Positions 2,555 to 27,109 of a stretch of DNA of 44,889 bases are shown one piece after another. Every line of letters begins with the position of its first letter. Positions within the stretch are counted from its first letter, which is position 1. The stretch spans positions 1-44,889 of the forward strand of contig CAZZNU010000001.1 in NCBI GenBank assembly GCA_964655925.1. Direction: 5' to 3'. Both the position numbers and the translations under genes were made by a program. This DNA comes from Candidatus Woesearchaeota archaeon. Lineage in GTDB: Archaea; Nanobdellota; Nanobdellia; Pacearchaeales; GW2011-AR1. Below the pieces are notes generated by a model. It was not told the origin of the DNA. It did not search any database and saw nothing but the letters and a program-made list of their open reading frames with translations.

Positions 2555-3064
2555 TTAGATTAAATCATGGAATTTATTTGGTAAAAGTCCACTATCATTG
2601 CAATGGTATACTTTATGAAACAATTCGTTTGAATACAAATTCAACTTAAGATTGAAGCTTTTTATTAATTTTTTATTATCTTTACTTATAACTAACTGTG
2701 GTGGCTTAAATTCTGTAGGATAAAAACCAAAACAATCATAGAAAATATCAATTCCTTCTTGAATTTCTTCATTTGATATATTACCATTAAATTCTTCATA
2801 TGTGTGTTTAATCCCATGTAACTGCAAAGTTTTATTCATAGAAAGTATGTAGTCACACCAAACTCTAGATTCGTTTATGGAAATATCATTAAACTTCGGA
2901 ACTACATAAAATACATCTGCTTTGTCTAATTCAATTCTGCTACAATTCATATACGGATTAACATCATCTATTTGTCTAGGGGATAACACCCTAACTGTTA
3001 AAACTAAAACTAACGAAATTAAGAAAAACAATAAAAAAACTAATGGTATTTTCCACAACTCCAT
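2555..3064 (-). CDS. Hypothetical membrane-anchored protein
   Basis: 169-aa ORF with an N-terminal hydrophobic helix (IPLVFLLFFLISLVLVLTV). The rest is soluble and contains several Cys. No family recognised. Confidence 0.4.
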   Translation of the reverse strand: MELWKIPLVFLLFFLISLVLVLTVRVLSPRQIDDVNPYMNCSRIELDKADVFYVVPKFNDISINESRVWCDYILSMNKTLQLHGIKHTYEEFNGNISNEEIQEGIDIFYDCFGFYPTEFKPPQLVISKDNKKLIKSFNLKLNLYSNELFHKVYHCNDSGLLPNKFHDLI

Positions 3065-3085
3065 CTAACTAAGTACATTATTTAT

Positions 3086-4450
3086 TTAAGCTCCGAAAAA
3101 GTTTTTCATCTTTGGGTTCATTTCTAGTGCATATTTCTGCGCAATATTTTGATACATTTGGTATAATATCATTATTGCTAATAATATTGCAGTTCCAGCA
3201 ACCAACGAACCAAAAAGATCTGCTACGCTTGCTAAAAGTCCAATAGCTAACCCACCCATAATCGTTAAAGGCTTTACATACCTTGATAATATACTTTCTA
3301 AAACTCTTTCATCTTTTCTAAATCCAGGAATGCTTAATCCACTTTCCATTATTTTTCTTGCCTGGCTTTTTGCATCAAGCTCACTTGTTGTAACCCAAAA
3401 AAATGCAAACAAAACAGAAAAACCACAATAAAATAAGATGTGAAGAAACCCTTGAAGCAGTATTCTCCATTGAAATGTATTTGTAATTACAGCGTTTAAA
3501 ATATTTGTAGAACCTATCCAATAAGCAAAACCAGCAACTGCAATACCATTCTGAAAACTACCTAAAAATGTTGGATGACCTAACCAATTTTGAAGTAGCC
3601 CACCAAATAGCTGTAGTGTGGCTGTTAGAGAAGAAACTAAAATAACTGGAATAACTCCTGTATAAAAAAAGTTCATTGGCCACTTTATATTATATCCTCT
3701 AATTCTATCATAAGAAAGTGGAATCTCTACTTTCAAACTTTGTGCAAAAACTACTATGAAAAATAGTATAAGAGTTATAAGAATAGGAACAAAAGATGTC
3801 ATCGCACCAGTAACATCATTATTTGCAAAAGAAGAAATCATGGACAATAACTTACCACTCAAAGCAAATTCTCCGGTTGGACCAATAAATTGGAATAATT
3901 GGGCAAATAATCTCCAAGCAATTCCACCTACTATAAACAATGAAATTCCACTACCTAGTCCCCATTTTTGCACAATTTCATCCATAAACAATATTAGAAG
4001 ACCACCAATACATAATTGTAATATTACTATGAACTCTTTGCCTGGCATTGAGGAAATCCCTCCCATAAAAACATAAATCATCGATTCAAATACTATAAAA
4101 GCTATGGATAACAATTTTTGTAATCCTTGAAAAAACTTTTTCCCTTCTTCACTACTTGTATCTATTTTTAGAATTTGCGCTCCAACTAATAATTGTAAAA
4201 TAATAGAAGCCATTACAATTGGACCAATACCTAAACTAATAATAGAACCAAAACTTGTTCCTAATAATATAGCTAAATATTCAAAATTACTCAAAGCATT
4301 AGAACTAATTCCATACATTGGAATATTTGCCAAAACAAAATATGCCAATAAAACTATAATTGTCCATTTTAAAGCAACCTTGAAGTCAACTTTCTTCTCA
4401 GTAGGTCCAACTACCTCCGGTAGACTTTTTAAAAAATCCTTGAAAGCCAT
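3086..4450 (-). CDS. secY: Preprotein translocase subunit SecY
   Basis: 454-aa polytopic membrane protein with SecY-like organisation (GIGPIVMASIILQLL in the TM2 region, C-terminal LLAIMILYQ). It lies divergent from SRP54. Confidence 0.9.
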   Translation of the reverse strand: MAFKDFLKSLPEVVGPTEKKVDFKVALKWTIIVLLAYFVLANIPMYGISSNALSNFEYLAILLGTSFGSIISLGIGPIVMASIILQLLVGAQILKIDTSSEEGKKFFQGLQKLLSIAFIVFESMIYVFMGGISSMPGKEFIVILQLCIGGLLILFMDEIVQKWGLGSGISLFIVGGIAWRLFAQLFQFIGPTGEFALSGKLLSMISSFANNDVTGAMTSFVPILITLILFFIVVFAQSLKVEIPLSYDRIRGYNIKWPMNFFYTGVIPVILVSSLTATLQLFGGLLQNWLGHPTFLGSFQNGIAVAGFAYWIGSTNILNAVITNTFQWRILLQGFLHILFYCGFSVLFAFFWVTTSELDAKSQARKIMESGLSIPGFRKDERVLESILSRYVKPLTIMGGLAIGLLASVADLFGSLVAGTAILLAIMILYQMYQNIAQKYALEMNPKMKNFFGA

Positions 4451-4563
4451 AGAAGAATACCTAAAAAGTAATTTATAAATATTTGTTTAATAAATATCGA
4501 CGAACCTTATTTTTTAAAAAACAGACAAGAAAAGAATAAAAATACATCTAAATTAGTTATAGT

Positions 4564-5937
4564 ATGGTTTTAGAAAAAATTGGAGAATCAATAAAAAAGG
4601 GAATCACACGTATTGGAAATGCTATTGTTCTAGATAAAAAAATGATTGATGATATCATTAAAGACATTCAAAGAGCATTAATAGAATCCGATGTGAATAT
4701 TGATTTAGTATTTGGTTTAACTCAAAAAATAAAAAAGATAGCATATGATGAAAATATTCGTGGAATTGATAAAAAAGAACAACTAATTAGCCTAATTCAT
4801 GATGAAATATTAAAGATTTTAGGACAGGAAACAAAAGAATTAAAGTTAGATAAAAAAACAACCATCTTGTTCACTGGACTTTACGGTTCTGGTAAAACCA
4901 CAAGCATTGCTAAAATAGGGTTCTATTATGCAAAAAGAGGTCGAAAAGTTGCATTAGTGGGATTAGATACAGATAGACCAGCTGCAATGGAACAATTAGA
5001 GCAAATGGCTCAGAAAGTAAAACTAAAATCTTTTATAGACAAAGAAGAAAAAGATCCAATTAAAATTTACAAAAAAATATCTAAAGAACTTGAAGACTAT
5101 AATTTAGTTTTAATAGACAGCGCTGGAAGAGATGGGCTAAATAAGGATTTAATTAAACAAATAGAAAAAATAGACAAAACTGTTGAAGCTAATTATAGAA
5201 TTTTAGTAATGAGTGCTGATATGGGACAATCTGCTAAAACGCAAGTTGAAAAATTTAAAGAGGCGTTAAAAATAGACGGGATAATTATAACAAAAATGGA
5301 TGGTACATCAAAAGCAGGTGGAGCATTGACTGCATGTGTTGAAACATCCTCCCCTATATACTTCATAGGAACTGGAGAGTATATACACGACATAGAAATA
5401 TTCAATCCAAAAAATTTCATTAATAACCTTTTAGGAATGGGAGATTTGTCTGGGCTATTAGAAAAAGTTAGAACGATGAGTGATGAAAAGCAAATGAAAA
5501 GGACAACCCAAAGACTAGAAGAAGGAAAATTTACACTTCTTGATGTCTATTCTCAATTAGAGCAAATGAATTCTATTGGTTCAATGGACAAAATACTTTC
5601 TATGATTCCTGGATTTGGAAATGTCTCTAGCAAAATCTCAAAAACAGATATGGAAAAGCAGAGTAAAAAACTAAAAAATTGGAAATCTGCAATTAATTCT
5701 ATGACAGAAGAAGAAGTTGAAAACCCTGAAATATTAGAAAAACAAACTTCAAGAATAAGTAGAATTGCAAAAGGCAGTGGTACAACCACTAGCGAAATAA
5801 GAATGCTACTTAAACAGTATAAACTTCTAAAAGAAATGATTTACAGTTCAAGCAGTGAAAAAATCGCTAGTGGACAAATAGACAAAAGAATGATGCAAAA
5901 AATTGCTAGACAGATGAAAGGAAAGGTAAAACTTTAA
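4564..5937 (+). CDS. srp54: Signal recognition particle protein SRP54
   Basis: SRP GTPase motifs GLYGSGKTT, DTDRPAA, DSAGR and TKMDGTSKAGGAL, followed by a Met-rich M domain. Confidence 0.92.
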   Translation: MVLEKIGESIKKGITRIGNAIVLDKKMIDDIIKDIQRALIESDVNIDLVFGLTQKIKKIAYDENIRGIDKKEQLISLIHDEILKILGQETKELKLDKKTTILFTGLYGSGKTTSIAKIGFYYAKRGRKVALVGLDTDRPAAMEQLEQMAQKVKLKSFIDKEEKDPIKIYKKISKELEDYNLVLIDSAGRDGLNKDLIKQIEKIDKTVEANYRILVMSADMGQSAKTQVEKFKEALKIDGIIITKMDGTSKAGGALTACVETSSPIYFIGTGEYIHDIEIFNPKNFINNLLGMGDLSGLLEKVRTMSDEKQMKRTTQRLEEGKFTLLDVYSQLEQMNSIGSMDKILSMIPGFGNVSSKISKTDMEKQSKKLKNWKSAINSMTEEEVENPEILEKQTSRISRIAKGSGTTTSEIRMLLKQYKLLKEMIYSSSSEKIASGQIDKRMMQKIARQMKGKVKL

Positions 5938-8698: not shown

Positions 8699-9148
8699 AT
8701 GCTCTGTCCATATTGCAACAATGAAGATACAAAAGTTACAGATAAAAGAGATAATGACTCAGTAACTAGACGGAGGCGTGAGTGCCTAAAATGTTCAAAA
8801 AGGTTCACAACTTATGAAAGAATAGAAATGAATTTATATGTTCTAAAAAAAAATGGTTCTAAAGAAAAATTTGACAGAGAAAAACTTTACAGTGGAATTT
8901 CAAAATGTTTAGAAAAAAGAAAGTTTGAAGATGAGGAAATATCAAATATTGTTGATAAAATAGAGTCAAGAATCTACAAATTAGCAAAAGATAAAGATAT
9001 TGAATCAAAAAAAATAGGAGAAATAGTAATGTCTGAACTAAAAAAAATAGACAAAGTAGCATATTTACGGTTTTCAGCAGTGTATAAAGGGTTTGAAAGT
9101 TTAGAAGATTTTGAGAAGGAGTTGGAGGATTTAAAAAATGGTAAGTAA
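8699..9148 (+). CDS. nrdR: Transcriptional repressor NrdR (zinc ribbon + ATP-cone)
   Basis: N-terminal CPYC...18 aa...CLKC zinc ribbon with RRRREC, followed by an ATP-cone (KKNGSKEKFDREKL...VAYLRFSAVYKGF). GAGGT lies upstream of the ATG. Confidence 0.9.
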   Translation: MLCPYCNNEDTKVTDKRDNDSVTRRRRECLKCSKRFTTYERIEMNLYVLKKNGSKEKFDREKLYSGISKCLEKRKFEDEEISNIVDKIESRIYKLAKDKDIESKKIGEIVMSELKKIDKVAYLRFSAVYKGFESLEDFEKELEDLKNGK

Positions 9149-11237
9149 AATAAGAAAAAGAGATGGGGATGTCGTAACATTTGACGAACAAAAAATAGAA
9201 AATGCTATTTGGAAAGCAGTTTGTGCTGTCGGTGGAAAAGACAGAGAAAAAGTAATTTCGATAACAAAAGTTATAATAGATAAATTAGACGAAAGATTCG
9301 GAGAAAATAATATCCCAGGAGTTGAAGATGTTCAAGATTTAGTTGAAGAAGTTTTAATTAAAAATGGACACGATCAAGTTGCAAAGGCATACATATTATA
9401 TCGTAAAAGCAGAGAAGATTTAAGAAATGTTAAAGGTCTTTTTGACACAATTGAAGCAGTAGAGGATTATTTAGGGTTAAACGATTGGATGGTAAAGGAA
9501 AATTCTAATATGGGATATTCTCTACAAGGTTTAAACAATTATATTTCTACAAAAATTATCACAAACTATTGGATAAGACGAGTTTATCCAGAAGCAATTA
9601 GAAAAGTTCACGAGGCGGGCGATTTGCACATTCACGATCTAGGAACTTTGGGTTCTTATTGCGTTGGTTGGGACCTAAAAGATTTACTTTTAGTTGGTTT
9701 TCAAGGTGTAAAAGGGAAAGTTGCAAGTAAACCTGCAAAACATTTAAGGACAGCCTTGGGACAAATAGTAAATTTCTTTTACACACTTCAAGGAGAGAGT
9801 GCAGGAGCGCAGGCGTTTAGTAACTTTGACACACTTCTTGCTCCATTCATCAGGTACGATGGATTAGATTACAAACAAGTTAAACAAGCAATGCAGGAAT
9901 TTTTATTTAATTTAGCAGTACCAACGAGAGTTGGATTTCAAACTCCCTTTACAAATGTAACTATGGACTTAAAAGTTCCTGAATATATGAGAGACGAACA
10001 TGTAATAGTTGGAGGACAAATTCAAAAAGAGACATACAAAGATTTTGAGGAAGAAATTAAGATATTAAATAGGGCATTTGCTGAATGTATGCTTGAAGGC
10101 GACGCATCAGGAAGGGTTTTTACTTTTCCTATTCCAACTTATAATATAACAAAAGACTTTGATTGGGACAACCCAGAATACAATTTAATTTGGGAAATGA
10201 CAGCAAAATACGGAATTCCTTATTTTAGTAATTTTATAAATTCGGATATGAAACCAGAAGACGCAAGAAGTATGTGTTGTAGGTTAAGAATAGATAACAC
10301 AGAATTAAAAAAACGAGGTGGAGGACTTTTTGGGGCGAACCCACTAACAGGTTCTGTTGGAGTTGTAACTATAAATATGCCAAGATTAGGGTATACCTCA
10401 GTAAACGAAGAAGATTATTTCCGAAGATTGGGAAGATTAATGGAATTAGCAAAAGAATCTTTAGAAATCAAAAGAAAAACTATTGAGAAATTTACAGAAA
10501 TTGGTTTATATCCTTATTCAAGGTTTTATCTAAGATTAATTTATCAAAGATTTAAGCAATACTGGAAAAACCATTTTGCAACAATAGGACTATTAGGATT
10601 AAACGAATCAATTATTAATTTTATGCCAGAAGAGAGTATAATAACTCCAAAAGGAAAAGACTTCGCACTAAGAGTTCTGGATTTTATGAGAAATAAATTA
10701 GAAGAATTTCAAAAAGAAACTGGAAATATCTACAACCTTGAAGCAACACCTGGAGAAGGAACAACTTATCGTTTTGCAAGAATAGATAAAAAAAGATTTG
10801 GGAGAATTGTCTGTGCAAATGAAAAGGCGTATAAGGAAAACAGCGCACCTCCTTACTACACAAACTCATCTCAGCTACCAGTAGACTATACAGATGATAT
10901 ATTTGAGGCACTAGATAATCAAGACCAATTGCAATGCAAATATACAGGTGGAACAGTATTTCACACTTTTATTGGGGAAAAAATAACAGCAGAAGCCGCT
11001 AAAAGTATGGTAAAAAAAATAGCGAATAATTATCACTTGCCTTATTTTACAATCACTCCAACATTTTCAATATGTCCAATTCATGGATATATCGCAGGAG
11101 AACACGAATACTGTCCAAAATGTGATGAGGAGATAGAAGCAGAAGAGAGTAGCGTACTGTCTCAAGCGTATACTGTTTCGGATTCAGAATTAAACATTGA
11201 ATCTCAAAATAAAATGGAGGTGTTTTATGAGAGCTAG
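9138..11237 (+). CDS. nrdD: Anaerobic (class III) ribonucleoside-triphosphate reductase NrdD, large piece lacking the glycyl-radical segment
   Basis: N-terminal ATP-cone, an NrdD core, and the C-terminal zinc site FSICPIHGYIAGEHEYCPKC. The ORF then runs into non-conserved sequence (DEEIEAEESSVLSQAYTVSDSELNIESQNKMEVFYES) and stops without an RVxGY motif. Confidence 0.9.
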   Translation: MVSKIRKRDGDVVTFDEQKIENAIWKAVCAVGGKDREKVISITKVIIDKLDERFGENNIPGVEDVQDLVEEVLIKNGHDQVAKAYILYRKSREDLRNVKGLFDTIEAVEDYLGLNDWMVKENSNMGYSLQGLNNYISTKIITNYWIRRVYPEAIRKVHEAGDLHIHDLGTLGSYCVGWDLKDLLLVGFQGVKGKVASKPAKHLRTALGQIVNFFYTLQGESAGAQAFSNFDTLLAPFIRYDGLDYKQVKQAMQEFLFNLAVPTRVGFQTPFTNVTMDLKVPEYMRDEHVIVGGQIQKETYKDFEEEIKILNRAFAECMLEGDASGRVFTFPIPTYNITKDFDWDNPEYNLIWEMTAKYGIPYFSNFINSDMKPEDARSMCCRLRIDNTELKKRGGGLFGANPLTGSVGVVTINMPRLGYTSVNEEDYFRRLGRLMELAKESLEIKRKTIEKFTEIGLYPYSRFYLRLIYQRFKQYWKNHFATIGLLGLNESIINFMPEESIITPKGKDFALRVLDFMRNKLEEFQKETGNIYNLEATPGEGTTYRFARIDKKRFGRIVCANEKAYKENSAPPYYTNSSQLPVDYTDDIFEALDNQDQLQCKYTGGTVFHTFIGEKITAEAAKSMVKKIANNYHLPYFTITPTFSICPIHGYIAGEHEYCPKCDEEIEAEESSVLSQAYTVSDSELNIESQNKMEVFYES

Positions 11238-11352
11238 GACTAAATGTGAAGTTTGGAGCCGAGTTGTTGGATATTTAAGGCCAACATCTGCTTGGAATGA
11301 TGGAAAACTTCAAGAGTTTAAGGATAGAAAAACATTCAATCAAAACTCTTAA
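11227..11352 (+). CDS. 41-aa ORF encoding the NrdD glycyl-radical segment; not in the ORF track
   Basis: Hand translation in the +1 frame gives MRARTKCEVWSRVVGYLRPTSAWNDGKLQEFKDRKTFNQNS. It contains the class III RNR glycyl-radical signature (SRVVGYLRP...WN.GK..EF..R). GGAGGTG at 11216-11222 lies 4 nt before the ATG. Its stop lies 1 nt before the nrdG ATG. Confidence 0.7.
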   Translation: MRARTKCEVWSRVVGYLRPTSAWNDGKLQEFKDRKTFNQNS

Positions 11353-11353
11353 G

Positions 11354-12052
11354 ATGGATATTTGTGGATTAGAAAAAACCACGCTTATAGACTATCCAGG
11401 GAAAATTGCTTGTACGATTTTTTTATTCGGTTGTAATTTTAGATGTGGTTTTTGTTATAACGCAAGTTTGGTTTTAGACAAACCAGAAGGATGTTTATCT
11501 GAAGAGAAAATTTTTGAATTTTTAGAAGGTAAAAGGGGAAAATTAGATGCAGTTTGTATTACAGGTGGAGAACCACTCTTAACAGTAGAAAAAGATTTTT
11601 TAAGAAAGATAAAAGAAATGGGATTTTTACTTAAGATAGATACGAACGGAACAAGTCCGGACAAATTAAAAGAACTAATTGATGAAAAACTAGTTGACTA
11701 TATTGCTATTGATATAAAGAACTCAAAAGAAAAATACGATTTAACAACGGGAGTTGATACAGATATTTCTAAAGTGGAAGAGTCAATGAAAATAATATCA
11801 AACTTTGAAAATTATGAATTTAGAACGACAATTGTTCCTAAACTTCACACAAAAGAAGATATAGTAAATATTATAGATTGGTTTAAATCTTTAAACATAT
11901 TCCCACAAAGATATTACCTGCAAGGATTCAAAAACAAAGGGGATTTTATTGATGAAAAATATTCAAAATACCATAATGCGACTGCAAAGTATCTGTATGA
12001 ACTAAAGAAGATAATAAAACCATTTGTTCAGAAAGCTGGATTGAGGTATTGA
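11354..12052 (+). CDS. nrdG: Anaerobic RNR activating protein NrdG (radical SAM)
   Basis: It has the CNFRCGFCYN radical-SAM cluster motif, GGEPL, and a typical start MDICGLEKTTLIDYPGK. The track ORF begins at 11297, but those extra 19 codons overlap the glycyl-radical ORF in another frame. Confidence 0.85.
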   Translation: MDICGLEKTTLIDYPGKIACTIFLFGCNFRCGFCYNASLVLDKPEGCLSEEKIFEFLEGKRGKLDAVCITGGEPLLTVEKDFLRKIKEMGFLLKIDTNGTSPDKLKELIDEKLVDYIAIDIKNSKEKYDLTTGVDTDISKVEESMKIISNFENYEFRTTIVPKLHTKEDIVNIIDWFKSLNIFPQRYYLQGFKNKGDFIDEKYSKYHNATAKYLYELKKIIKPFVQKAGLRY

Positions 12053-12103: not shown

Positions 12104-12454
12104 TCACCCCAATCGCTTCGCAAATGTAAAAATTTTCCCGCTTATAATATCTATTTTCCCTACTAAATAATTTAACTCTTCTTCTGATATATAATTAAGA
12201 TTTTGTGCTATGATTAATTGACATTCTACTTCCTTAGCACTACCTAAAGACATATGTAAGAAATGTTTAAAATATTTATTTGAATTTCTTCCGGAGCCCT
12301 CTGCTATATTTGATGAGACACTTACAATTGCTCTTCTTATTTGGTTTGTTAACCCGTACATTTCCTCTTGTGGAAATTTTTTTGTGACCATATAAATTTC
12401 ATTTGTGAATTCAATAGATAACTTCCATATATCTAATTCCTTAAAATTATTCAT
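12104..12454 (-). CDS. Four-helix-bundle protein (23S rRNA intervening-sequence protein / Avd-like family)
   Basis: The 117-aa core MNNFKELDIWKLSIEFTNEIY...QIRRAIVSVSSNIAEGSGRNSNKYFKHFLHMSLGSAKEVECQLIIAQNLNYIS...KIFTFAKRL matches the family pattern (NIAEG.GR, F...A.GS..E). The ATG at 12454 is preferred over the TTG at 12583. Confidence 0.85.
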   Translation of the reverse strand: MNNFKELDIWKLSIEFTNEIYMVTKKFPQEEMYGLTNQIRRAIVSVSSNIAEGSGRNSNKYFKHFLHMSLGSAKEVECQLIIAQNLNYISEEELNYLVGKIDIISGKIFTFAKRLG

Positions 12455-12507
12455 CCATTCATTAACAGAATAAGTATTATATTTTTTATGACTAAATTGG
12501 GATAAGC

Positions 12508-12556
12508 CGTAAGCAGTAAACTGTAAACCGTAGACTGTAGACAGTAGACAGTAGAC
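12508..12556 (-). repeat. Heptanucleotide array C (7 units, opposite orientation), in the leader of the four-helix-bundle gene
   Basis: The plus strand reads CGTAAGC AGTAAAC TGTAAAC CGTAGAC TGTAGAC AGTAGAC AGTAGAC, which is the reverse complement of GTYTACN units. Confidence 0.85.
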
Positions 12557-12604
12557 TGCAAAATTTTTATCCAGAAAATTCAATAAAATTTAAATAGTCA
12601 TTAT

Positions 12605-15867: not shown

Positions 15868-18027
15868 CTAACCACCAATACCGGCTAGTGCAATACCGGC
15901 AATTAGTGTTAGAGCAACAATAGATACAAGAGCAATAGCAAAATATGTCATCATGCTCTTTGCTAAGTTAATCCCAGTCTGAGAAGCAACCGTTAAATCA
16001 TCCTTCCCATTATTTATAGTTACCAAAGTAGAACTCAAAATAAATACTATCTCAATTAGATAAATACCAACAACAATCTGTATCCAATAAGTAGGAAGCA
16101 TAGTTTCCAAATTAAACATAGAAGATAAATTACTCAAAGCCCCAGCCCCCATTATCCCATCAGCTGCATCCATACTCCCCATAATTGTCTCTAAATTGCC
16201 TAATATTAGCGTAATCATACCACTTAAACCCACTATTATCCCAGAAAGCATCGGCGCCAAAAACCCCATATTACTCCTCATATCACTAATTATCTCAGCA
16301 AGCAAATCCTTTAACCTATCCTGAACCTTATTAACATTCTTAACATACTCTGAAATACTCATTAAACTCCTCGCAGCAACCTGCAAACCCTTCTTCACTG
16401 ATTCAACCAATATTCTCATTGACATCACAATTAAATGAGATGGATAGTATATAGCAGCCCCACGACTCTCATCAAAAATAGCCCTATCAATACTCATACC
16501 ATACCCTCTAATATTCTCACTAACCATAGCAAAAAATCCCTCACTAGCAGTTCCCTTACTCGATTCTGCAATCTTCCCAAACGCCACCTCAGCTGGGAGC
16601 CCATCCCCAATTCTATTCCCCAACTGAAACAACGAAGAAGTAAACTCACTCTCCACCTGTCTATACCTCTCTTTTTCCTTAATAATATCAACAGTTCTCT
16701 TCCTAAAAGAATAAGAAAACATTACAGCAATCCCTATTGGAATAAATAAACTCATAACTAACGAAAGAGGTCCAAACGGTCCATAAACCTTACCATCACT
16801 CTCAAAAAGCCCAAATAAACTAGTACTTTCCATAAAACCAAATCCTAAATCTCCAAAAGTCCAATCCAAAGGCATATTCAACCAATTATGAAGTGGAGTA
16901 TAACCCCAAACAATAGGAAAAATACCAATCAAAAACAAAGGCAAAGCAATCAAAAACCCTACCTTCAAACTTTTCTTACTCTGAAACTTCTCATACAAAG
17001 GATTTTTTGACAACAACCCAGAATCCCCATACCCACCAGGTCTCATAGACATAATATTATATGTCATATATATTACAAAAAACGGTATCATCAAATTAAA
17101 CATAATAAACAAATGAGACACTTTTATTGCTCCATTAAGCATAGTAGACGCCAAAGGCAAAATCGCAAGAGCAAGAGTAGGCAAAACAATCCCAAGCATA
17201 TAAACATTAGTCAACGGACTTTTTACCTCATGAGTATACTTAAGCATCTTATCGTACACACCATCTAAAATAACAGTTAAAGCCCTCTCCAAAATCTCAA
17301 CCCTTCTTCCCTCACTTGATTCAAACAAACTAGAACTAACCAAATGAATTGCCTCAACAAATTCCATAGAATAATCCTTCCACCCCTCCAAATAAATATC
17401 AATAGCTTCCTTAATAGTAGAATACTTTTTAGACTGAACCTCCCAAAAAATTCTCTTAAAGTCTGATGACAACGGATCCTCTAAATTCTCAGCAGCAAAC
17501 GCAACCGCTTTTTCCAAGTTAGAAGTATGCTTCATATAAATAACAATATACAACAACGCAGGGACCATCTGACTACTCGCTTTAAGTCTCCACTTCATCG
17601 CCAACCTCTCAGGCGTCTTAGAAGCAAAATAATAAATAAATAAACCAAAAAACAAAAACAAAAAAAGCATAAGAACACTAAAAGTATCAATAATAAGATA
17701 TAGTGCGAGCACAAAAAAAAGCCCACCAACAATTGTAATCATCATAAGCATAGCAGCAAGCCCCATAACTTCAGAAGGACTAACATTCAAGTGAGCAATA
17801 TCTATATTTTTCTGAATCTTCTGAGCATCCTTACCCTTAACTTTAACACTTATTGTCTTACCAACTGACTTACACCACTTCTCATAATTAGTAAAATCAG
17901 GCGACAACCCTTCTTTATAACTCTCATAAGTTCTCGTAAAATTAACATTGTCATACGAACTCTCAAACTGGTTCATCTGCTTCTTTATCTTATCACCATA
18001 CTTCCTCAAAATATCGTCCGTACTCAT
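15868..18027 (-). CDS. Polytopic membrane protein, TadC/FlaJ/PilC-like type IV pilus platform protein
   Basis: 719 aa. Two soluble helical segments (about aa 136-270 and 440-590) resemble T2SS-F domains (DPLSSDFKRIFWEVQSKKYSTIKEAI; FTSSLFQLGNRIGDGLPAEVAF...IRGYGMSIDRAI). Each is followed by TM helices. Confidence 0.5.
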   Translation of the reverse strand: MSTDDILRKYGDKIKKQMNQFESSYDNVNFTRTYESYKEGLSPDFTNYEKWCKSVGKTISVKVKGKDAQKIQKNIDIAHLNVSPSEVMGLAAMLMMITIVGGLFFVLALYLIIDTFSVLMLFLFLFFGLFIYYFASKTPERLAMKWRLKASSQMVPALLYIVIYMKHTSNLEKAVAFAAENLEDPLSSDFKRIFWEVQSKKYSTIKEAIDIYLEGWKDYSMEFVEAIHLVSSSLFESSEGRRVEILERALTVILDGVYDKMLKYTHEVKSPLTNVYMLGIVLPTLALAILPLASTMLNGAIKVSHLFIMFNLMIPFFVIYMTYNIMSMRPGGYGDSGLLSKNPLYEKFQSKKSLKVGFLIALPLFLIGIFPIVWGYTPLHNWLNMPLDWTFGDLGFGFMESTSLFGLFESDGKVYGPFGPLSLVMSLFIPIGIAVMFSYSFRKRTVDIIKEKERYRQVESEFTSSLFQLGNRIGDGLPAEVAFGKIAESSKGTASEGFFAMVSENIRGYGMSIDRAIFDESRGAAIYYPSHLIVMSMRILVESVKKGLQVAARSLMSISEYVKNVNKVQDRLKDLLAEIISDMRSNMGFLAPMLSGIIVGLSGMITLILGNLETIMGSMDAADGIMGAGALSNLSSMFNLETMLPTYWIQIVVGIYLIEIVFILSSTLVTINNGKDDLTVASQTGINLAKSMMTYFAIALVSIVALTLIAGIALAGIGG

Positions 18028-19112: not shown

Positions 19113-22100
19113 CTACTTCTTCTCTAAAACTCCATCTCTAAAAGTATAATTTTCTAAAACAACTAATTTGTGTATTCCTATATATTCTCCCTTTTGTTTT
19201 TCATCAATTACAATAGCTCCATCCTCTAACACCTTCCCTACATTTTTATTAAAAAACAAAATACCTGATTTTTTTACCTTACCCTTATCATCTATAAAGA
19301 ATTTTGTCCTCTCTCCACCATACACAATATGCTTACCTTCCACATAAAAGTTGTAATCGTACATACATTTTCCAGAAAACAAATCACAATGGTACCCACT
19401 CTCACACTCTAAGTCAGAACTACAATAAGTATTAACACACCTATTATCTTCATCACAAACTTTTCCAACACTACAATCCAAAGACACCAAACACTCAACA
19501 CATGTCCTGCTCTCTGTTATCCAAACCATCTTGTTTTCTATACACCTTTCTTCTTCTCTCACAAATTCGTTTATACATTTTCCAGATGTCAAGTTACAAA
19601 AATATCCACTATTACAATCCAAGTCAGAACTGCAAAAATCACTAACACATACATTTTTTACACATACTCCTGCACCACAATCTAAAGATGAAATACATTC
19701 AACACACCCTAACTCATTTCCACCCCATACAAAACCACTTCTCTTACAATCTAATTCACTCTCTTTAAACTCTTCAAAACATTTTCCAGAAGTTAAATCA
19801 CAAAAATATCCTTTATCACATTCCAAATCAGAACTACAAAAATCATTAACACACATTTTATCTACACTACATATTTTACCTATACCACAATCAGAAGACT
19901 CCAAACACTCAACACATTTTCTATCTTTAGTTATCCAAAATAACCCATTGTCTTTACAAATTTGCTCCTTTTTTATAAAATCGTCCATACATTTTCCAGA
20001 AAACAAATCACAGAAATATCCTTTACCACATTCCAAATCAGAACTACAAAAATCATTAACACACATTCCATCCACGCTACATACCCTACCTATACCACAC
20101 TCTGAAGATGACATACATTCAACACACCTTTTTTCATCCTCTAACCAAGTCCACCCATTCTTAGCACAACTATCTTTCACCCTATCAGCATCCTTATATA
20201 AGGCACCATTAGAAATACGATATTTTTCTAATTCTTCATATGTGAACCCTACTCCTATTATCTCTCTATTCTTAAACTCTGGACTCACCACAATTATATC
20301 ATTTGAATTTAAACTAGCAATTATATTCTTACCACTTAAATCATATATCTTCCTATCAGCTGACAAATACATGTCTATATAATTATAATTATAATAAATT
20401 TTATTCTCTTTTAGATTTAACCCTATATTTTTCTTAAACTCTCCTCCAATAAATGAGTAATCGCTTAATGCCGAAAAAGTTATATCTTCCCCTTTAATTC
20501 GCTTAGATTCATGCCCACTTATTATTGAAATAGATTTATCTTCATTGATATAACCAAATTTTGTATACGGAATTGAACAACTTTGTAAATAGTAATCATA
20601 AACTCCTGTACCTTCTTTTATACAAATACCAGTAGAACGGGTTTCATACAATATTTCTCCCTTTATCGAGTTATATGAAAATCCTGAAACAGATATTGTC
20701 TCAACCAACTTCTCACAATGGTTATGACAATATTCCTTATTGTCCTCCCCCATACTTTCTAAGCAACTCAAAACACAATCCTCTGCTATTCCATCTTCTA
20801 CTACTATTCCTCTTTTTGCTAATATAGAGTTTAAAGAAATCTTCAAATAATATGCGTACGCTTTTTGACTGTTAGTAGCACCACTTGATGTTCCTATTAT
20901 ATCTTCTAAGTCCTTATTTATCTCATTATATGTTTTTACATCTCCAACAGACTCTTCAGGAGCAAAACTGTTTATTTTTTTCTTTACTTCTTCTAATTTA
21001 GTATCAAACTGTTCATAACTTCCAACCGTCCTTTTAATCCCAATATCTTTAATTTCAGAAGGATCTATTGTAGACAGAACCTTGTTTATATCTTTAGTAT
21101 CAAGCCAACATATTACATTTTCATCTCCACAATATCCAACATTTCTCCACCTCTCATCACTCTCTACAATAGATGCTCCAGATTCTGGATTCCTACTAGC
21201 ACAAACTCTAGTAATTCCAACACTAGAAATACTGTTTCTTGAATCAAGCATATTGTCTCCTTCCACAAAGTCAACAATTAAATTTAATCCGTGGCTAAAA
21301 GATAAACAATCCGCTTCTGTTGTTATCTTTGTAGAATTAACATCAGCTAATAGTATTTTATCTATTACACGATTAACTCCATACAGTGAACTAGTTACTC
21401 CAAAGTCGCATTTTGTATCACCATCTACTGAAATACATAATTTCCTATATCCACTTATTGCAGTAAAATCTTTATTTTCTATTTTTGACTCTCTAGCCGG
21501 AATAATTCCTTTAGCTATAACATAAGTATTATCATATGAAATGCTTGATGGATCCGTTAAATATACGCTATAAGACCTATCCTTACTACCTGCATAAATA
21601 CTATAAAATACACTGTATATTGATTCAGGTGGGGTTGTAGCATCAGTATAACTTTTCTCACTAACACTTCCTGTAAATTGTGCCCCTGTTGTTGGAGATA
21701 AAGAATTCCACACTCCACTAAGCCAACTCTGTTTGCCCCCATCTCCTATGCCAATAGACGGCGTATTAATTATTGCATTACATAAATCATAACTAACATT
21801 TTCTAGATTAATATCAAATAACTTGTCTAAAGATGTACTCAAATAATTTGCAATATAATTAGACGCTATAGCGTTTAATTCTTTTCTTTGTGCCAAGAAG
21901 TTAAGATAAGTTGAACCACCACTTAGTTTACTTATACCTAAATTACCCACCCAATTTAGACCTGAATTTACTAACGAGACAGCATGCTTAGTAACCATCT
22001 CACAAATATAAAAGCTCCTTATCTTATCACAACTGCCAACATATTCTCCAGTCGTCGCCCTTGTGTTTAAACAATTTTGATGTTCAACAAGCATAGAACG

Positions 22101-25100
22101 AAATGCATCAAGACCTGCATAAATCCCTGGAATACAAACAAATCCATTTCCTATACAATAAACAATACTTCCTATAACCCCTGTTTGAGTAACATCCTGA
22201 ACTCTCCATTTGCCTTTCAAGTCACATCTATCTGATGGACACTCCACCCAATCACACACCTTCTGAACTCCTAAGCAATCTTGAGGACTCAAAAAGTCCA
22301 TACACTCAAAATCCATTAATGCAAAAAGTGTCTTTCCAACTGTAAATGTTTGTCCTAAAATATTTGCTGTATCACTTCCGTATTGTCTATTTGCTTCCAT
22401 AATCGCAGTATACGCTTTATTATACAAATCCTTGACTTGCGCCTCTGTATAACTCTCACACGGAGTAAATTTATCATAAATAGGATTTCTAACTTCAAAA
22501 CTTCTACATAAGTCTTGCCCCAATCCATAATTTATAGTATTATCCTTTCCAACATTACAAATGTAAAAATTCAAAACTTCTCCATTAGATGAATATGCTT
22601 TGACTCTGTCATCAAACACATCTCCTCTACTCGAAGAAACATAAGCGTACCATCCTCTTTCTCTGTCAAACGGTACAACCGCAGCTAATCCATTAACATT
22701 ACTTAACCCACCAAGCATTGAGCCTACTTCATAATATTCTATATTTCCAGTTGTAATCACATTAGAACAAGCATCATCTAACCTACTTTTTTTACTCGTA
22801 CTAGGTTTTTCTTCTTCTTTCTCATTAACATTATTTTCTACTTCTTTAGAATCTCCACGAACGAGCGGAAATAATGTGAACGAAAATAATATCTTTCCAC
22901 TTTGAGATTGAGTTTGTTGTTCTATTAGTGGAGCAAATTCCTTATTTACATCTCCAAGTATTGTTTTACAATAATAATCTTTATCGCCACAACCTCCATT
23001 AAAATCAGCAACAGAAGAAAACAAAGTATATTTCTCCATTTGAGATACAGACATATCATCTATTTCTAATGGAATAGTTACTCCATTCACATTAATAAAT
23101 AATTCACCACTTGCAGACTTCCACCCTCTCTCTTCAGAAGCATCATTTAATAGAGAGCCTGCTGATACTCTCTCATTCTGAGTCATTTTATAACTTTCTT
23201 TATATTTACTCTTCAAGTCTTTTACATCCTTTGAGTATTGTTTAACTGCCTTATTTATTGCATCATTATTATCTAATAAACACTTATCCATTCCATCTGG
23301 AGAGTCCCTACATCCTTCCTTAAACACTTGCATAACACTCATTCTATACAAAGCTTCTCCATTAGCTAACGCTGTAATCATTTTTATTGTAGTATATGTT
23401 CTAGCTACACCACAAACCGCATTCCAACCATTATGTATTACTTCTATTGCGTCTACAATATTTCCAACTATTCTTATAGTATCGTTCATCTCATCAGCCC
23501 TCTTCTTAGCTTTTTCTGGTGTTAGAGCAAAAAATCTTTTTTCTATTGGAATGTGGAATGTAAAATTCATTGCAATATCTCCACTATCTATCTTTGGTAT
23601 AATCCTTACTTTTGCAACATTATTATAATTCACATTGTCTAGTCTTAATCCTATAATTTTTTTATTTTCATTTTCAAAATATTTGCTCTCTCCTACAGCT
23701 AAACTTATACTCTCTCCTTTCACCCAAAAGACAGCACTATCTTCATTTATTCTTGATATAATAACACCGTACTCCTCAATATACTCTCCCTCTCTTTTAT
23801 TAGGGAATACATTATCTTCACCATCTACATTCAAATTAAAACTAACTGTAACACTTTTTTCGTCTGATAAAAAGTGAAAGTTGTTTATGATTATTGTTGA
23901 ACTCAAACCGTTTTGTAAATTAATATTCCTAGCCCCCTCACTTCTATCAACATTTTGCATCCCTTGTCCCATAATAGAAATTTCTGAGAAATGTTCTGAA
24001 TATTGAAATTCTTTTAAGTATCTATTTACAAGTTCTTTTTGAGTTTTTTCAAGACCTAAATCTCTAGCCAAAAATATAGAATCATATAGCGCCATCTCCG
24101 CATAATATTTCTCGTCTGGCGATTTTTCTTTTGGAAAGTTATTAAGTAATTCTGTCAAATCTTCTTTTATCAACTTAAAAGACTCTATATTTTTCTCTTT
24201 ATCTACCAATTCCTCTACATTTTTTCTACTTTTTAGTCTCAGTGTATAAATTTCACTTCCACATTTAATCATCACCTGTCCAACAGGAGCATCCTCGCAT
24301 TTAACACCATCTTTACTTCCAGCAATATCACAATCTTTTACTATCCTGTTAACCACACAAGCACCGTTTAGTATAGAATCACCTTCCCTTAACATGTAGT
24401 TCATTCCATCTATATTCAAATCTACTTTATTTTTTGCAGGCACTATCCCCTCAAACTTAACTCTAAACCCAGCCTTACATTCGTATCCAGGTAAATAAAC
24501 AACATCGCTTGTTTGACCTTCCTTCAAATTAAAAGAAGCATAGTTTTCTAAACCAAGCATGTTAAAAACAAGTTGAACCGATTCAGAACTATAATCTCTT
24601 ACCTTAACCAACCCCGTACTAGAAAGATATTCGCCCGTATTTCTCTCGTCCAAACTTAAATATAAAACCTCATCTTTAATTCTGTCATTAGTAACAAAAG
24701 TGTACTTTATGTTAGCTGTCAAAATACCTGTTACATATTTTTCTAGATTGTCTTCATTAGGCTGCTTTTTTAGTACAACAACTACATAACCTATATTTTC
24801 CAAAACATCATCAATAATCTTAGATGAACTTTTAGACAATGATGACCTGTATGGATGATAACTTATACTTCTCACTTCTTCAGGGTAATCTCCACTAAAA
24901 GAAATAGAAGATATAGCCGATGCTTGAATTAATGAATTTAGTCTAACTGCATTTAATTGGCACATCACACTAACATCTTGTTCTGCTAATAAATTACTAG
25001 TAACAACCGACGGAGTGCAAGAACTTATGAAAATATCAAAATCTGCCTTTGCTGGAGTACTACACACATCTCCAAAAGAGGTTTCTCCACCTGGGAAATT

Positions 25101-25235
25101 ATTAGGTGAATTGCCAAAAGAGCTACTTCCTGTTGGATTATTAAAATTATCTTCTGCAAAAACTAAACTCATGGTCATTAGTAAAACCAGACACATCATT
25201 AAACAATAAATCGTCCTTTTATTTACATCTACCAT
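19113..25235 (-). CDS. Giant (2040-aa) secreted protein with C-terminal Cys-rich repeats, putative adhesin
   Basis: Sec-type signal peptide (MMCLVLLMTMSLVFA/ED) and a large body with no recognisable family. Four tandem repeats of about 70 aa with 10 Cys each lie near the C-terminus. Its start overlaps the stop of the upstream gene (TAATG). Confidence 0.75.
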   Translation of the reverse strand: MVDVNKRTIYCLMMCLVLLMTMSLVFAEDNFNNPTGSSSFGNSPNNFPGGETSFGDVCSTPAKADFDIFISSCTPSVVTSNLLAEQDVSVMCQLNAVRLNSLIQASAISSISFSGDYPEEVRSISYHPYRSSLSKSSSKIIDDVLENIGYVVVVLKKQPNEDNLEKYVTGILTANIKYTFVTNDRIKDEVLYLSLDERNTGEYLSSTGLVKVRDYSSESVQLVFNMLGLENYASFNLKEGQTSDVVYLPGYECKAGFRVKFEGIVPAKNKVDLNIDGMNYMLREGDSILNGACVVNRIVKDCDIAGSKDGVKCEDAPVGQVMIKCGSEIYTLRLKSRKNVEELVDKEKNIESFKLIKEDLTELLNNFPKEKSPDEKYYAEMALYDSIFLARDLGLEKTQKELVNRYLKEFQYSEHFSEISIMGQGMQNVDRSEGARNINLQNGLSSTIIINNFHFLSDEKSVTVSFNLNVDGEDNVFPNKREGEYIEEYGVIISRINEDSAVFWVKGESISLAVGESKYFENENKKIIGLRLDNVNYNNVAKVRIIPKIDSGDIAMNFTFHIPIEKRFFALTPEKAKKRADEMNDTIRIVGNIVDAIEVIHNGWNAVCGVARTYTTIKMITALANGEALYRMSVMQVFKEGCRDSPDGMDKCLLDNNDAINKAVKQYSKDVKDLKSKYKESYKMTQNERVSAGSLLNDASEERGWKSASGELFINVNGVTIPLEIDDMSVSQMEKYTLFSSVADFNGGCGDKDYYCKTILGDVNKEFAPLIEQQTQSQSGKILFSFTLFPLVRGDSKEVENNVNEKEEEKPSTSKKSRLDDACSNVITTGNIEYYEVGSMLGGLSNVNGLAAVVPFDRERGWYAYVSSSRGDVFDDRVKAYSSNGEVLNFYICNVGKDNTINYGLGQDLCRSFEVRNPIYDKFTPCESYTEAQVKDLYNKAYTAIMEANRQYGSDTANILGQTFTVGKTLFALMDFECMDFLSPQDCLGVQKVCDWVECPSDRCDLKGKWRVQDVTQTGVIGSIVYCIGNGFVCIPGIYAGLDAFRSMLVEHQNCLNTRATTGEYVGSCDKIRSFYICEMVTKHAVSLVNSGLNWVGNLGISKLSGGSTYLNFLAQRKELNAIASNYIANYLSTSLDKLFDINLENVSYDLCNAIINTPSIGIGDGGKQSWLSGVWNSLSPTTGAQFTGSVSEKSYTDATTPPESIYSVFYSIYAGSKDRSYSVYLTDPSSISYDNTYVIAKGIIPARESKIENKDFTAISGYRKLCISVDGDTKCDFGVTSSLYGVNRVIDKILLADVNSTKITTEADCLSFSHGLNLIVDFVEGDNMLDSRNSISSVGITRVCASRNPESGASIVESDERWRNVGYCGDENVICWLDTKDINKVLSTIDPSEIKDIGIKRTVGSYEQFDTKLEEVKKKINSFAPEESVGDVKTYNEINKDLEDIIGTSSGATNSQKAYAYYLKISLNSILAKRGIVVEDGIAEDCVLSCLESMGEDNKEYCHNHCEKLVETISVSGFSYNSIKGEILYETRSTGICIKEGTGVYDYYLQSCSIPYTKFGYINEDKSISIISGHESKRIKGEDITFSALSDYSFIGGEFKKNIGLNLKENKIYYNYNYIDMYLSADRKIYDLSGKNIIASLNSNDIIVVSPEFKNREIIGVGFTYEELEKYRISNGALYKDADRVKDSCAKNGWTWLEDEKRCVECMSSSECGIGRVCSVDGMCVNDFCSSDLECGKGYFCDLFSGKCMDDFIKKEQICKDNGLFWITKDRKCVECLESSDCGIGKICSVDKMCVNDFCSSDLECDKGYFCDLTSGKCFEEFKESELDCKRSGFVWGGNELGCVECISSLDCGAGVCVKNVCVSDFCSSDLDCNSGYFCNLTSGKCINEFVREEERCIENKMVWITESRTCVECLVSLDCSVGKVCDEDNRCVNTYCSSDLECESGYHCDLFSGKCMYDYNFYVEGKHIVYGGERTKFFIDDKGKVKKSGILFFNKNVGKVLEDGAIVIDEKQKGEYIGIHKLVVLENYTFRDGVLEKK
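19353..20168 (-). repeat. Four tandem coding repeats (64-70 codons each) inside the giant ORF
   Basis: The protein repeats share C..(N/S)G..W.....(K/R/G)CVEC..S.(D/E)C..G..C.....CV(N/S)(D/T)(F/Y)CSSDL(E/D)C..GY.C(D/N)L.SGKC. The DNA period is about 205-210 nt (boundaries 19353, 19545, 19749, 19959, 20168). Confidence 0.85.
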
Positions 25236-27109
25236 TAGATAAACTCCATATTCAATTTAGAATTTTCGATGTTTAAATAATTTCCTTGCAACTCTTCTGA
25301 AGATGTAGGAACACCAAACATAGTTGGCCTAATTCTTACAGAATTTATATTTCTCAACATCTCACTTGTAAAATATTGCTCTATTTCTCCTCCACCAATT
25401 AAAACACGCTCCATTTTGATTTCAGGAATAGTTATTTCCTTACAATTATCAAACTCTATTCCAAATATTTCGCTAAATCCTGTAGATTGTTTTGTACAAT
25501 ATTGCTCTTTTTTGCTCGGAATAGTTATTTCAGTTCCTGAATAAATGTATGCACTTACAATATAATTATCTTCAGAAAGTTTGGCTACCTTGGTTTCTGG
25601 GTACATTATTGTCTCTATGTTATTATTGTTCTCTCCATAAAAACTCAACATAGCACTGTCTCCTTCCCTTAAATCTAAAATTTCAACATTCAATTCATAT
25701 TCCTTATACAATATCAAATCTAATACATCATTATTTCCTCCACTAGTGTAAACAAATTCTGTATCTCCAAATCCTTCTGCGCTAACTTTTACAACACCAT
25801 TTACACATGTTGGAATTAATCCAGAATAAACATATAATCCATTCCTATATACACTCTCTCCTAATTCACAGTTAGAAGAAACACAACTATAAGAAATCCT
25901 AGCTGGTATTGGGTTTAAATCTGAATCATATGTTTTTATGCTTACTCTTGAATTCATATTCTCGCACACCTTACTATTATAGTTAACACTGCTATTAATA
26001 TCCGGCAAAATTAACTCTCTTGGTTCATTATTATCAATAACCACTCTTATAGGAAATTGAAACACGAAATCCTCATCCCATATTTGAATTAGTACTGGAT
26101 ATCTTATATCATAAACTAAGTGTGTATATGAGAGACATACGCCCAATATCCCTGATATAGCATCTATTGGATTAACATTTTTCTCTCCATAAATATCAAT
26201 TACATTAGACCAATTTCTATCAAACAAAACTCTAGTATTTTCATCAAAATTCATTCCAGTATTTTTTACAAAATATCCATTATGCCTATCAAGTGAAGAG
26301 TCATAATAACTACCCTTAAATTTAATGAAATTTATATTTTGCTCTAATGCTTCTAAAAGATTATCTTTAATCTCATCCTCCTTATAATTAACAGAAGAAC
26401 AATCAAAACTAACATCTTCAACTGGAGCGTAATTCCATAAAACATCCATAGTGTATTTTTCTAAAAACATTTCTTGCTTCTCATAATCATATATTGACTT
26501 TGCTAATTTGTAATATTTACCTAGTTTTGATGGAACATTGATTTTGTGTTCATCTAATGAATAATATTTATCATCAAAATACATATCTACTTTGTTAATA
26601 ATTTCTACATTTACATTGTTATCATTTATTGTAACAAACGCCTTTCCTGAATTAATTATCACATTATATCCTTCATTTAACGCATTACTAAAATCACAAC
26701 TATTCAAATGTGAGCTTACATATTGTTCTAATTCTAACTCCATATCTCTTTTAGAGGGAACTTGCTCTACAAAAGAGCCATTATTAGACAAGTACAGCCA
26801 ATAAGGAATATGATTTCCAAATATCTCAAATTGAGAATTATATTCAGAATTAATAAATCCCAATATTAAGTTTGGTTTTTCAATATATCCAGCATTATCC
26901 CCTAAAAGCATTATTCCTTCTTTAACTGTGGATTCTACACAAGCCAAATATTGTTCATACACCCCTCTAAAGTCCTTTGGGACATTCGTCACCAACAGTT
27001 TATCTTTAAATGCAAAAAATAATATTGAACTAGATAGAATAATTATTCCTAAAATAATAAAAAGAGTTACTTGTCCCTTTTTACCTCCCCTCTTTTCAAC
27101 GCTATACAT
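25235..27109 (-). CDS. Large protein with class III (prepilin-like) signal peptide, cotranscribed with the giant ORF
   Basis: N-terminus MYSVEKRGGKKG/QVTLFIILGIIILSSSILFF. 624 aa with several Cys and no recognisable family. Confidence 0.6.
   Translation of the reverse strand: MYSVEKRGGKKGQVTLFIILGIIILSSSILFFAFKDKLLVTNVPKDFRGVYEQYLACVESTVKEGIMLLGDNAGYIEKPNLILGFINSEYNSQFEIFGNHIPYWLYLSNNGSFVEQVPSKRDMELELEQYVSSHLNSCDFSNALNEGYNVIINSGKAFVTINDNNVNVEIINKVDMYFDDKYYSLDEHKINVPSKLGKYYKLAKSIYDYEKQEMFLEKYTMDVLWNYAPVEDVSFDCSSVNYKEDEIKDNLLEALEQNINFIKFKGSYYDSSLDRHNGYFVKNTGMNFDENTRVLFDRNWSNVIDIYGEKNVNPIDAISGILGVCLSYTHLVYDIRYPVLIQIWDEDFVFQFPIRVVIDNNEPRELILPDINSSVNYNSKVCENMNSRVSIKTYDSDLNPIPARISYSCVSSNCELGESVYRNGLYVYSGLIPTCVNGVVKVSAEGFGDTEFVYTSGGNNDVLDLILYKEYELNVEILDLREGDSAMLSFYGENNNNIETIMYPETKVAKLSEDNYIVSAYIYSGTEITIPSKKEQYCTKQSTGFSEIFGIEFDNCKEITIPEIKMERVLIGGGEIEQYFTSEMLRNINSVRIRPTMFGVPTSSEELQGNYLNIENSKLNMEFI

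Follow-up and report, generated by a model that had tools for sequence, protein, structure and literature searches.

The 44,889-nucleotide (nt) stretch analysed here, called the window below, covers positions 1 to 44,889 of contig CAZZNU010000001.1 (assembly GCA_964655925.1) of a Candidatus Woesearchaeota archaeon. It includes an operon for class III (anaerobic) ribonucleotide reductase (RNR) in which nrdD, the gene of the catalytic subunit, is divided into two open reading frames (ORFs), a large one of 699 amino acids (aa) and a small one of 41 aa with the glycyl-radical motif. Very probably the enzyme is a natural class III RNR of two polypeptides, in which the glycyl-radical peptide is detachable. 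This explanation was also the one favoured by an earlier note made from the letters of the window, and it is supported by comparative evidence: the relative frames of the two pieces vary among relatives, the small ORFs have start codons of their own, the gene order differs in Orenia, purifying selection acts on the small ORF, and orphan copies of it occur in viruses. The existence of the split and its conservation are nearly certain, as judged from the sequences compared.

The features of the operon are the following.

8699-9148, forward strand: nrdR, encoding an NrdR-type repressor (Pfam Zn_ribbon_NrdR 6e-16, ATP-cone 1.5e-19).
9138-11237, forward strand: large piece of nrdD, 699 aa (Pfam NRDD 6e-178; NCBIfam NF006126 1036 bits).
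11073-11123, forward strand: zinc-ribbon ligands C646-x2-H649 ... C659-x2-C662, placed by sequence and alignment.
11124-11237, forward strand: C-terminal extension (aa 663-699) and stop codon, delimited by tail identity, charge and predicted local distance difference test (pLDDT) score.
11216-11222, forward strand: Shine-Dalgarno (SD) sequence GGAGGTG, 4 nt before the ATG of the small ORF.
11227-11352, forward strand: small ORF, 41 aa, the glycyl-radical segment (Pfam NRDD 531-562/562, E 4.8e-11).
11354-12052, forward strand: nrdG, encoding the radical-SAM activase, 232 aa (NCBIfam TIGR02495 NrdG2 2e-57).

The order of the operon is thus nrdR, nrdD, the 41-aa ORF and nrdG, with nrdR as the first gene and an overlap of 11 nt between nrdR and the start of nrdD. 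The large ORF includes an ATP-cone (aa 4-93) and the catalytic barrel (aa 121-666), followed by the zinc ribbon and an acidic tail. Its zinc site (C646-P-I-H649 ... C659-P-K-C662) aligns with the zinc sites of T. maritima and P. copri NrdD, and the zinc ribbon is the final segment with homology to unsplit NrdD. After it the ORF continues for 37 residues, DEEIEAEESSVLSQAYTVSDSELNIESQNKMEVFYES, and stops with TAG at 11235-11237, and no RVxGY motif is present anywhere in the 699 aa. The motif is found in the small ORF, which lies in the +1 frame between an ATG at 11227 and a TAA at 11350-11352, overlaps the end of nrdD by 11 nt and encodes a small stand-alone protein, MRARTKCEVWSRVVGYLRPTSAWNDGKLQEFKDRKTFNQNS, with an SD sequence and ATG of its own. 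Its predicted radical glycine is G15 (codon 11269-11271), within SRVVGY. All coordinates given in the earlier note were right, with about 35 residues counted for the tail of 37, and also the 4-nt spacing of GGAGGTG and the end of the small ORF 1 nt before the nrdG ATG were confirmed.

The GGAGGTG is the longest anti-SD match when the 33 ORF starts of the window are compared. For nrdG, in contrast, no anti-SD match was found among these starts, and since its ATG (11354) follows the stop of the small ORF by 1 nt, translation of nrdG is probably coupled to that of the small ORF.

Two profiles divide at the same place. The Pfam NRDD (PF13597) profile matches the large ORF over positions 1-533 of 562 and the small ORF over positions 531-562, and the NCBIfam NF006126 profile matches them over positions 2-658 and 649-683 of 684, respectively. 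The break therefore lies precisely where the zinc ribbon ends and the glycyl-radical hairpin begins. The large ORF shows no other lesions and scores 1036 bits with NF006126 (cutoff 548 bits). Of the features of a class III NrdD, the core, the zinc ribbon and a nearby NrdG are present, while RVxGY on the same chain is lacking. The spacing from the CxxC to S-R-V-x-G-Y is 133 nt, compared to 21-75 nt in fused relatives. It had been suggested that roughly 100 nt were inserted here. The extra length proved right, but it is no recent repeat-flanked insertion, and the short direct repeat pointed out in this stretch is at chance level, other repeats in the same 400 nt being at least as long. The additional sequence encodes a compositionally conserved, acidic C-terminal extension of variable length common to all split relatives.

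RVxGY is absent from all of the 120 closest NrdD homologues (74-100% identity), which stop after tails of 12-385 residues; the nearest carry the names Pacearchaeota or Nanoarchaeia. The split, which the earlier note had proposed to look for in related genomes, was then scored in 80 related loci from species-representative genomes, in which the zinc site and the radical motif were located in all frames. These loci, like the 80 viral loci described below, are the best matches to this query and form no unbiased census. Among the 78 loci that could be scored, 50 are split and 28 fused. Compared with the large ORF, the small one reads in frame 0 at 12 split loci, in frame +1 at 18 and in frame +2 at 18; these counts cover 48 of the 50, the remaining two being recognised only by a relaxed motif. 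The two pieces are separated by anything from an overlap of 137 nt to a gap of 726 nt. A start codon precedes the motif in all 50 split loci (ATG in 49), and an SD sequence of at least 5 nt stands at the equivalent position in 31 of them.

In the neighbour-joining tree of the NrdD cores, entire clades are split, among them those of Pace-, Woese- and Nanoarchaeota (DPANN), Halanaerobiales, the Elusimicrobia (8 of the 8 sampled) and three lineages of the candidate phyla radiation (CPR), namely Microgenomates, Falkowbacteria and Veblenbacteria; also the representatives of Aenigm-, Iain- and Micrarchaeota are split. Fused lineages interleave with the split clades, so the tree, which is rough and built by neighbour joining only, points to several independent splits or re-fusions. 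A cultured organism with the split is Orenia metallireducens MSL40, in which the order is nrdD, nrdG and then a radical ORF of 47 aa. There nrdD ends ...CPKCDAEMEFEEEQSA, and AAGGAGGTGA lies upstream of the 47-aa ORF. In Orenia and another Halanaerobiales genome the pieces are about 720 nt apart, and in Orenia this stretch is nrdG. Taken together, the split is real, ancient, recurrent and under selection.

Programmed recoding, in which a +1 frameshift or the bypassing of the tail stretch would give a full-length NrdD and GGAGGTG would act as a stimulator, is very unlikely in the light of these comparisons. It would agree with the small frame of the window being +1 and open from 11197, and with the occurrence of GTG TTT TAT G at a short spacing from an SD-like element, an arrangement that loosely resembles the prfB +1 site. 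Among the relatives, however, the three frames occur in similar numbers, the T-run is not conserved, each small ORF has its own start codon, and neither a fixed frame relation nor a conserved slippery or take-off site (prfB-like or T4 gene 60-like) was found across the homologues. The junction RNA is no better folded than its shuffled versions (z = -0.27) and has no match in Rfam, so that neither a stimulatory structure nor an intron element was detected there. The occurrence of the small ORF alone in viruses, described below, does not fit recoding either. Because frames and gaps vary and nrdG intervenes in Orenia, frameshifting, bypassing and an intron are all argued against as a general mechanism, and the two-piece enzyme is left as the preferred explanation of the locus.

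Within the radical core of 30 codons, the divergence at codon positions 1, 2 and 3 is 0.28, 0.22 and 0.60 per site in the split loci and 0.27, 0.17 and 0.62 in the fused loci. This codon-position signature is the same as in the fused genes, and purifying selection thus acts as strongly on the small ORF as on the fused domains. The conserved residues are also the same in split and fused loci (CEvySRvvGYlRPv.qWN.GK..Ef.dRk), and E8, S11, R12, G15, Y16, L17, R18, P19, N24, G26 and R34 are invariant in 29 diverged sequences. When the small ORF was used in a sequence search, 66 of the 66 matches were proteins of 38-72 aa, and those with any annotation were labelled 'hypothetical' or 'anaerobic ribonucleoside-triphosphate reductase'. 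With a profile, 4,984 matches were obtained among 1.84 billion cluster representatives, and 149 of the 150 best were 42-123 aa long. One protein of 72 aa (P0186) includes the zinc ribbon together with the radical segment and has no nrdD upstream, its contig of 2.3 kb being too short to interpret.

The small ORFs of the Elusimicrobia form a variant of their own. They are 66-100 aa long (loci L059-L074; in L062 the large ORF is at 2986-5046 and the small one at 5140-5421), with C-terminal tails rich in Cys or in N/T/S and with a conserved, helical-looking N-terminal extension of 25 aa (MTAQEK..IENKISELK..; …IENKISELKTKLEN…). Also the tail of the large subunit is helical-looking in this group (…EEIEKQIALLEEQLYSK; EEIEKQIALLEEQL). 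As a speculation, the two extensions might pair as a coiled-coil tether between the pieces, comparable to the split NrdA of Aeh1.

Scanning IMG/VR with the small-ORF profile produced 80 loci, of which 78 could be scored. In 59 of these the radical segment is a stand-alone small ORF, and no NrdD core (searched with a hidden Markov model built from 78 cores) or NrdG-like ORF was found within 10 kb or elsewhere on those contigs. One contig with such an orphan belongs to a bona fide tailed virus, with a tape-measure protein (E 6e-105), a minor tail protein and a baseplate hub. The viral peptides have kept the consensus, with codon-position divergences of 0.30, 0.24 and 0.60, and some of the viral small ORFs, 95-144 aa long, include the zinc ribbon. 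Examples of the two kinds are given below.

9477-9590 of an IMG/VR contig (L174, from the set L172-L250): orphan copy of the radical segment.
25525-25959 of GenBank KP703175 (3698-4132 of L251): coding sequence of 144 aa, 'nrdD' of the virus ANMV-1.

The authors of ANMV-1 labelled the latter nrdD and took it as a complete oxygen-sensitive RNR (GenBank KP703175). It is instead a fragment consisting of the radical module with a zinc ribbon, and no full reductase. The radical module thus circulates as an independent gene, and its presence alone in viruses therefore supports function in trans.

The constraint and the viral copies also bear on the explanation that the large ORF is radical-free and non-catalytic or differently activated, and that the small ORF is an unrelated leftover, serving only as a leader that couples the translation of nrdG. 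The small ORF does act in coupling, as nrdG has no SD sequence and starts 1 nt after the stop of the small ORF. A leader, however, would hardly keep 11 residues (E8...R34) invariant among the 29 diverged sequences or be under the same purifying selection as functional domains, and viruses carry the small ORF without nrdG; this explanation is accordingly given little credence.

Even less can be said for a pseudogene or a sequencing or assembly error, by which an indel in a normal nrdD would have produced the small ORF and its SD sequence by coincidence. It is favoured a priori only, by the 1-nt frame difference, which is the commonest artefact of metagenome assembly. Ten independent assemblies, which come from different sequencing runs, are 100% identical to the window over the 341 nt around the junction, and at least 12 contigs code for precisely this 41-aa product. 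The split is kept in hundreds of diverged homologues, including all of the 120 closest, the third-codon-position bias equals that of fused genes, and the large ORF far exceeds its profile cutoff without further lesions. An error of this kind is therefore extremely improbable.

Splicing, in which the stretch of about 100 nt would be a small intron (archaeal bulge-helix-bulge or other) whose removal restores the frame, can be dismissed with the same firmness: the host is archaeal, a few archaeal protein-coding genes carry bulge-helix-bulge introns and the extra length is 1 modulo 3, but the junction has no stable or conserved structure, the intervening length is 71-783 nt with a whole gene inside in some lineages, bacteria (Elusimicrobia, CPR lineages and Halanaerobiales), which lack the archaeal splicing endonuclease, share the split, and a conserved SD sequence and ATG would be needless in a stretch that is removed.

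For the two-polypeptide enzyme, the assembly of the pieces, the activation of the free peptide, its exchangeability and the role of the tail are inferred from homology to NrdD structures and from the behaviour of the activase and the spare part of pyruvate formate-lyase (PFL). PFL activase acts on short glycine-motif peptides, and GrcA/YfiD restores oxygen-cleaved PFL in trans. Accordingly to this model, the catalytic subunit of 699 aa would be made with its end after the zinc ribbon in a disordered acidic tail, and the separate, basic 41-aa peptide would be translated alongside from its own SD sequence and ATG. Since the small ORF overlaps the end of nrdD and its stop abuts the start of nrdG, all three products are likely to be made in a coupled manner. 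NrdG with S-adenosylmethionine would abstract a hydrogen from Gly15 of the peptide, leaving a glycyl radical, and the beta-hairpin of the peptide would enter the barrel of the large subunit non-covalently, at the place occupied by the C-terminus in unsplit NrdD. The docked peptide would then generate the thiyl radical with which nucleotide reduction begins. The acidic tail may capture or hold the basic peptide. As oxygen cleaves glycyl-radical proteins at the glycine, oxygen damage would cost the split enzyme only the 41-aa peptide, which is cheap to replace.

The tail (aa 663-699) includes 11 D/E and one K, giving a net charge of about -10 by residue count. Its identity with five close homologues is 0.26-0.49, compared to 0.79-0.87 for the cores. 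Of 119 homologues, 118 have a tail with a negative net charge (median -9), and of 66 small peptides, 58 have a positive one (median +5). The tail is fast-evolving and is predicted to be disordered. Its final codons coincide with the SD sequence and start of the small ORF, read in another frame. The ends conserved among the tails (…LNxGGDxNGxNEM, …KKEVxY) were considered as a protein motif and rejected, being the SD sequence (GGAGGTGAT) and the first codons of the small ORF out of frame. Judged from the overlap coordinates, this conservation would reflect the overlapping SD sequence and start, with the stop TGA inside TGT-GAA (Cys-Glu) codons. Some split large subunits are about 350 aa longer than this one: P0105 (1046 aa) has an acidic repetitive tail of 385 aa after the zinc site, and in P0038 and P0084 (1034-1062 aa) the extra length lies before the zinc site and possibly consists of inteins.

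An AlphaFold2 (AF2) model was constructed of the concatenated pieces with an unpaired alignment; a version without alignment was discarded at a pLDDT of 34. The model shows the NrdD fold with a mean pLDDT of 72 and a predicted template modelling score (pTM) of 0.66. Residues 669-706 have a pLDDT below 50, and the radical segment forms a hairpin (709-712, 715-718) and a helix with modest confidence. The best Foldseek matches of the model were the NrdD structures of P. copri, S. thermophilus, T. maritima and T4.

Some points weigh against the two-polypeptide enzyme. The GTG-TTT-TAT-G following the SD-like element could permit a +1 slip and hence a minor fused product in this particular sequence. 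The pLDDT of the radical segment in the AF2 model is only about 50-68. It is also possible that some of the 'viral' contigs of IMG/VR are misclassified cellular DNA.

A wider proposal, held tentatively and with slightly less than even confidence, is that the peptide of about 40 aa is an exchangeable, consumable radical cofactor, which would be activated by NrdG off the enzyme, dock to any compatible NrdD and, once damaged by oxygen, be discarded in favour of a new one. Copies encoded by viruses of DPANN archaea, CPR bacteria and other anaerobes would then serve to re-arm or take over the reductase of the host. If this is true, class III RNR would, like class I, have a separate radical-carrying subunit, and the viral copies would represent a new kind of tiny auxiliary gene.

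The surroundings of the operon include some further observations. Convergent with nrdG and adjoining its 3' end is a homologue of the '23S rRNA intervening sequence protein', a four-helix bundle, at 12104-12583 on the reverse strand (Pfam 2e-37), and the same neighbour is found in independent assemblies. The NrdR is of bacterial type although the host is a DPANN archaeon, and the nearest fused NrdD relatives are bacterial (Bacteroidales and Syntrophomonas), which together suggests that the whole nrd operon has been transferred horizontally.

That the host is a DPANN archaeon is seen from the nearest NrdD homologues and from the genes for TFIIB, SecY with a Sec61 plug, SRP54, PolD and an S-layer protein in the window, which has a GC content of 31%. 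An ORF of 2180 aa at 35354-41896 on the reverse strand joins a complete archaeal PolD large subunit, DP2 (aa 27-1110), to a complete bacterial-type DNA polymerase III alpha, DnaE (aa 1147-2174; 1132 bits, cutoff 1002), and a DP1-like small subunit is located at 43905-44804 on the same strand. A chimeric assembly is argued against by the GC content, which is uniform (about 0.30) across both halves. No fused relatives were found among the best 120 protein matches spanning the junction, only bacterial DnaE fragments, a look-up of the exact product was empty, and no description of such a fusion was found in the literature searched. The ORF may be a novel replicase fusion. Three other reverse-strand ORFs, at 19113-25235 (2040 aa), 25235-27109 (624 aa) and 15868-18027 (719 aa), had no Pfam match at E <= 0.001.

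A split nrdD of the kind proposed would matter for several reasons. Glycyl-radical enzymes are thought to hold the radical on their own C-terminus, and it has long been asked how the activase gains access to a glycine that lies buried in the barrel; a free radical hairpin of 40 aa would give an experimental handle on activation, as also on docking and radical transfer. It would bear on the evolution of those RNR classes in which a separate subunit holds the radical. Many lineages with very small genomes have the split, and in these NrdD may be the sole route to deoxyribonucleoside triphosphates, so that annotation of the pieces as truncated or hypothetical misjudges a core function. The viral orphans suggest a previously unrecognised auxiliary gene, and the cultured Orenia metallireducens makes the split open to testing.

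In comparison to the canonical single-chain NrdD/NrdG systems (T4, E. coli, T. maritima, P. copri and S. thermophilus), the system of the window is alike in its ATP-cone, barrel, zinc ribbon, SRVxGY motif and adjacent radical-SAM NrdG, and the AF2 model superposes on the solved NrdD structures. It differs from them in that the motif is on a separate chain of 41 aa and the catalytic chain, instead of running on into the radical hairpin, closes with an acidic disordered extension. The closest functional analogues are GrcA/YfiD and T4 Y06I, spare parts of PFL, in which likewise a small stand-alone radical segment has to serve a large barrel protein in trans; the phage-encoded Y06I is a parallel to the viral orphans. 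The 41-aa ORF, however, matches Pfam NRDD only and not Gly_radical (PF01228). The analogy with GrcA drawn in the earlier note thus applies to the trans-acting radical module and not to its role: GrcA (127 aa) backs up a complete enzyme with a radical domain of its own, while here the partner has no such domain and the peptide, as the only copy of the radical site, would be obligatory. The viral orphans might still fit a GrcA-like backup of the host enzyme.

According to a 2026 review, formate-lyases constitute the sole class of glycyl-radical enzymes with known spare-part proteins, and the restoration of oxygen-cleaved PFL by GrcA/YfiD in trans is covered there as well (PMC13450708). Beyond the formate-lyases, the peptide would be the first glycyl-radical module that stands alone. 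Split RNRs have been described in class I (Aeh1 NrdA-a/NrdA-b) and class II (NrdJa/NrdJb) (PMC3267527; PMC9669993), and no class III split is listed in the RNR reviews. Neither a split NrdD nor a stand-alone radical peptide of NrdD type was found described in the literature searched on RNRs and glycyl-radical enzymes, the coverage of which was partial. The enzyme would be the first split RNR of class III, classes I and II having them already.

Assembly of the two Aeh1 pieces is helped by the C- and N-terminal extensions that they have at the break (bioRxiv 10.1101/2022.08.31.505936; PMC3267527), and these are analogous to the acidic tail described here and to the N-terminal helices of the Elusimicrobia small ORFs. 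The Pseudomonas NrdJa/NrdJb and the Aeh1 NrdA-a/b, the latter produced by a mobE insertion, are alike the present case in that a catalytic subunit from two genes is reassembled. No homing endonuclease or remnant of the Aeh1 type was found between the pieces, which overlap by 11 nt in the window and have nrdG between them in Orenia. Compared with these splits, the class and the break point are different, and the small piece, of about 40 aa, carries the radical. Genes in pieces occur in the reduced genomes of Nanoarchaeum equitans and other DPANN archaea, but the split of nrdD reaches beyond DPANN, to Elusimicrobia, CPR lineages, Halanaerobiales and viruses.

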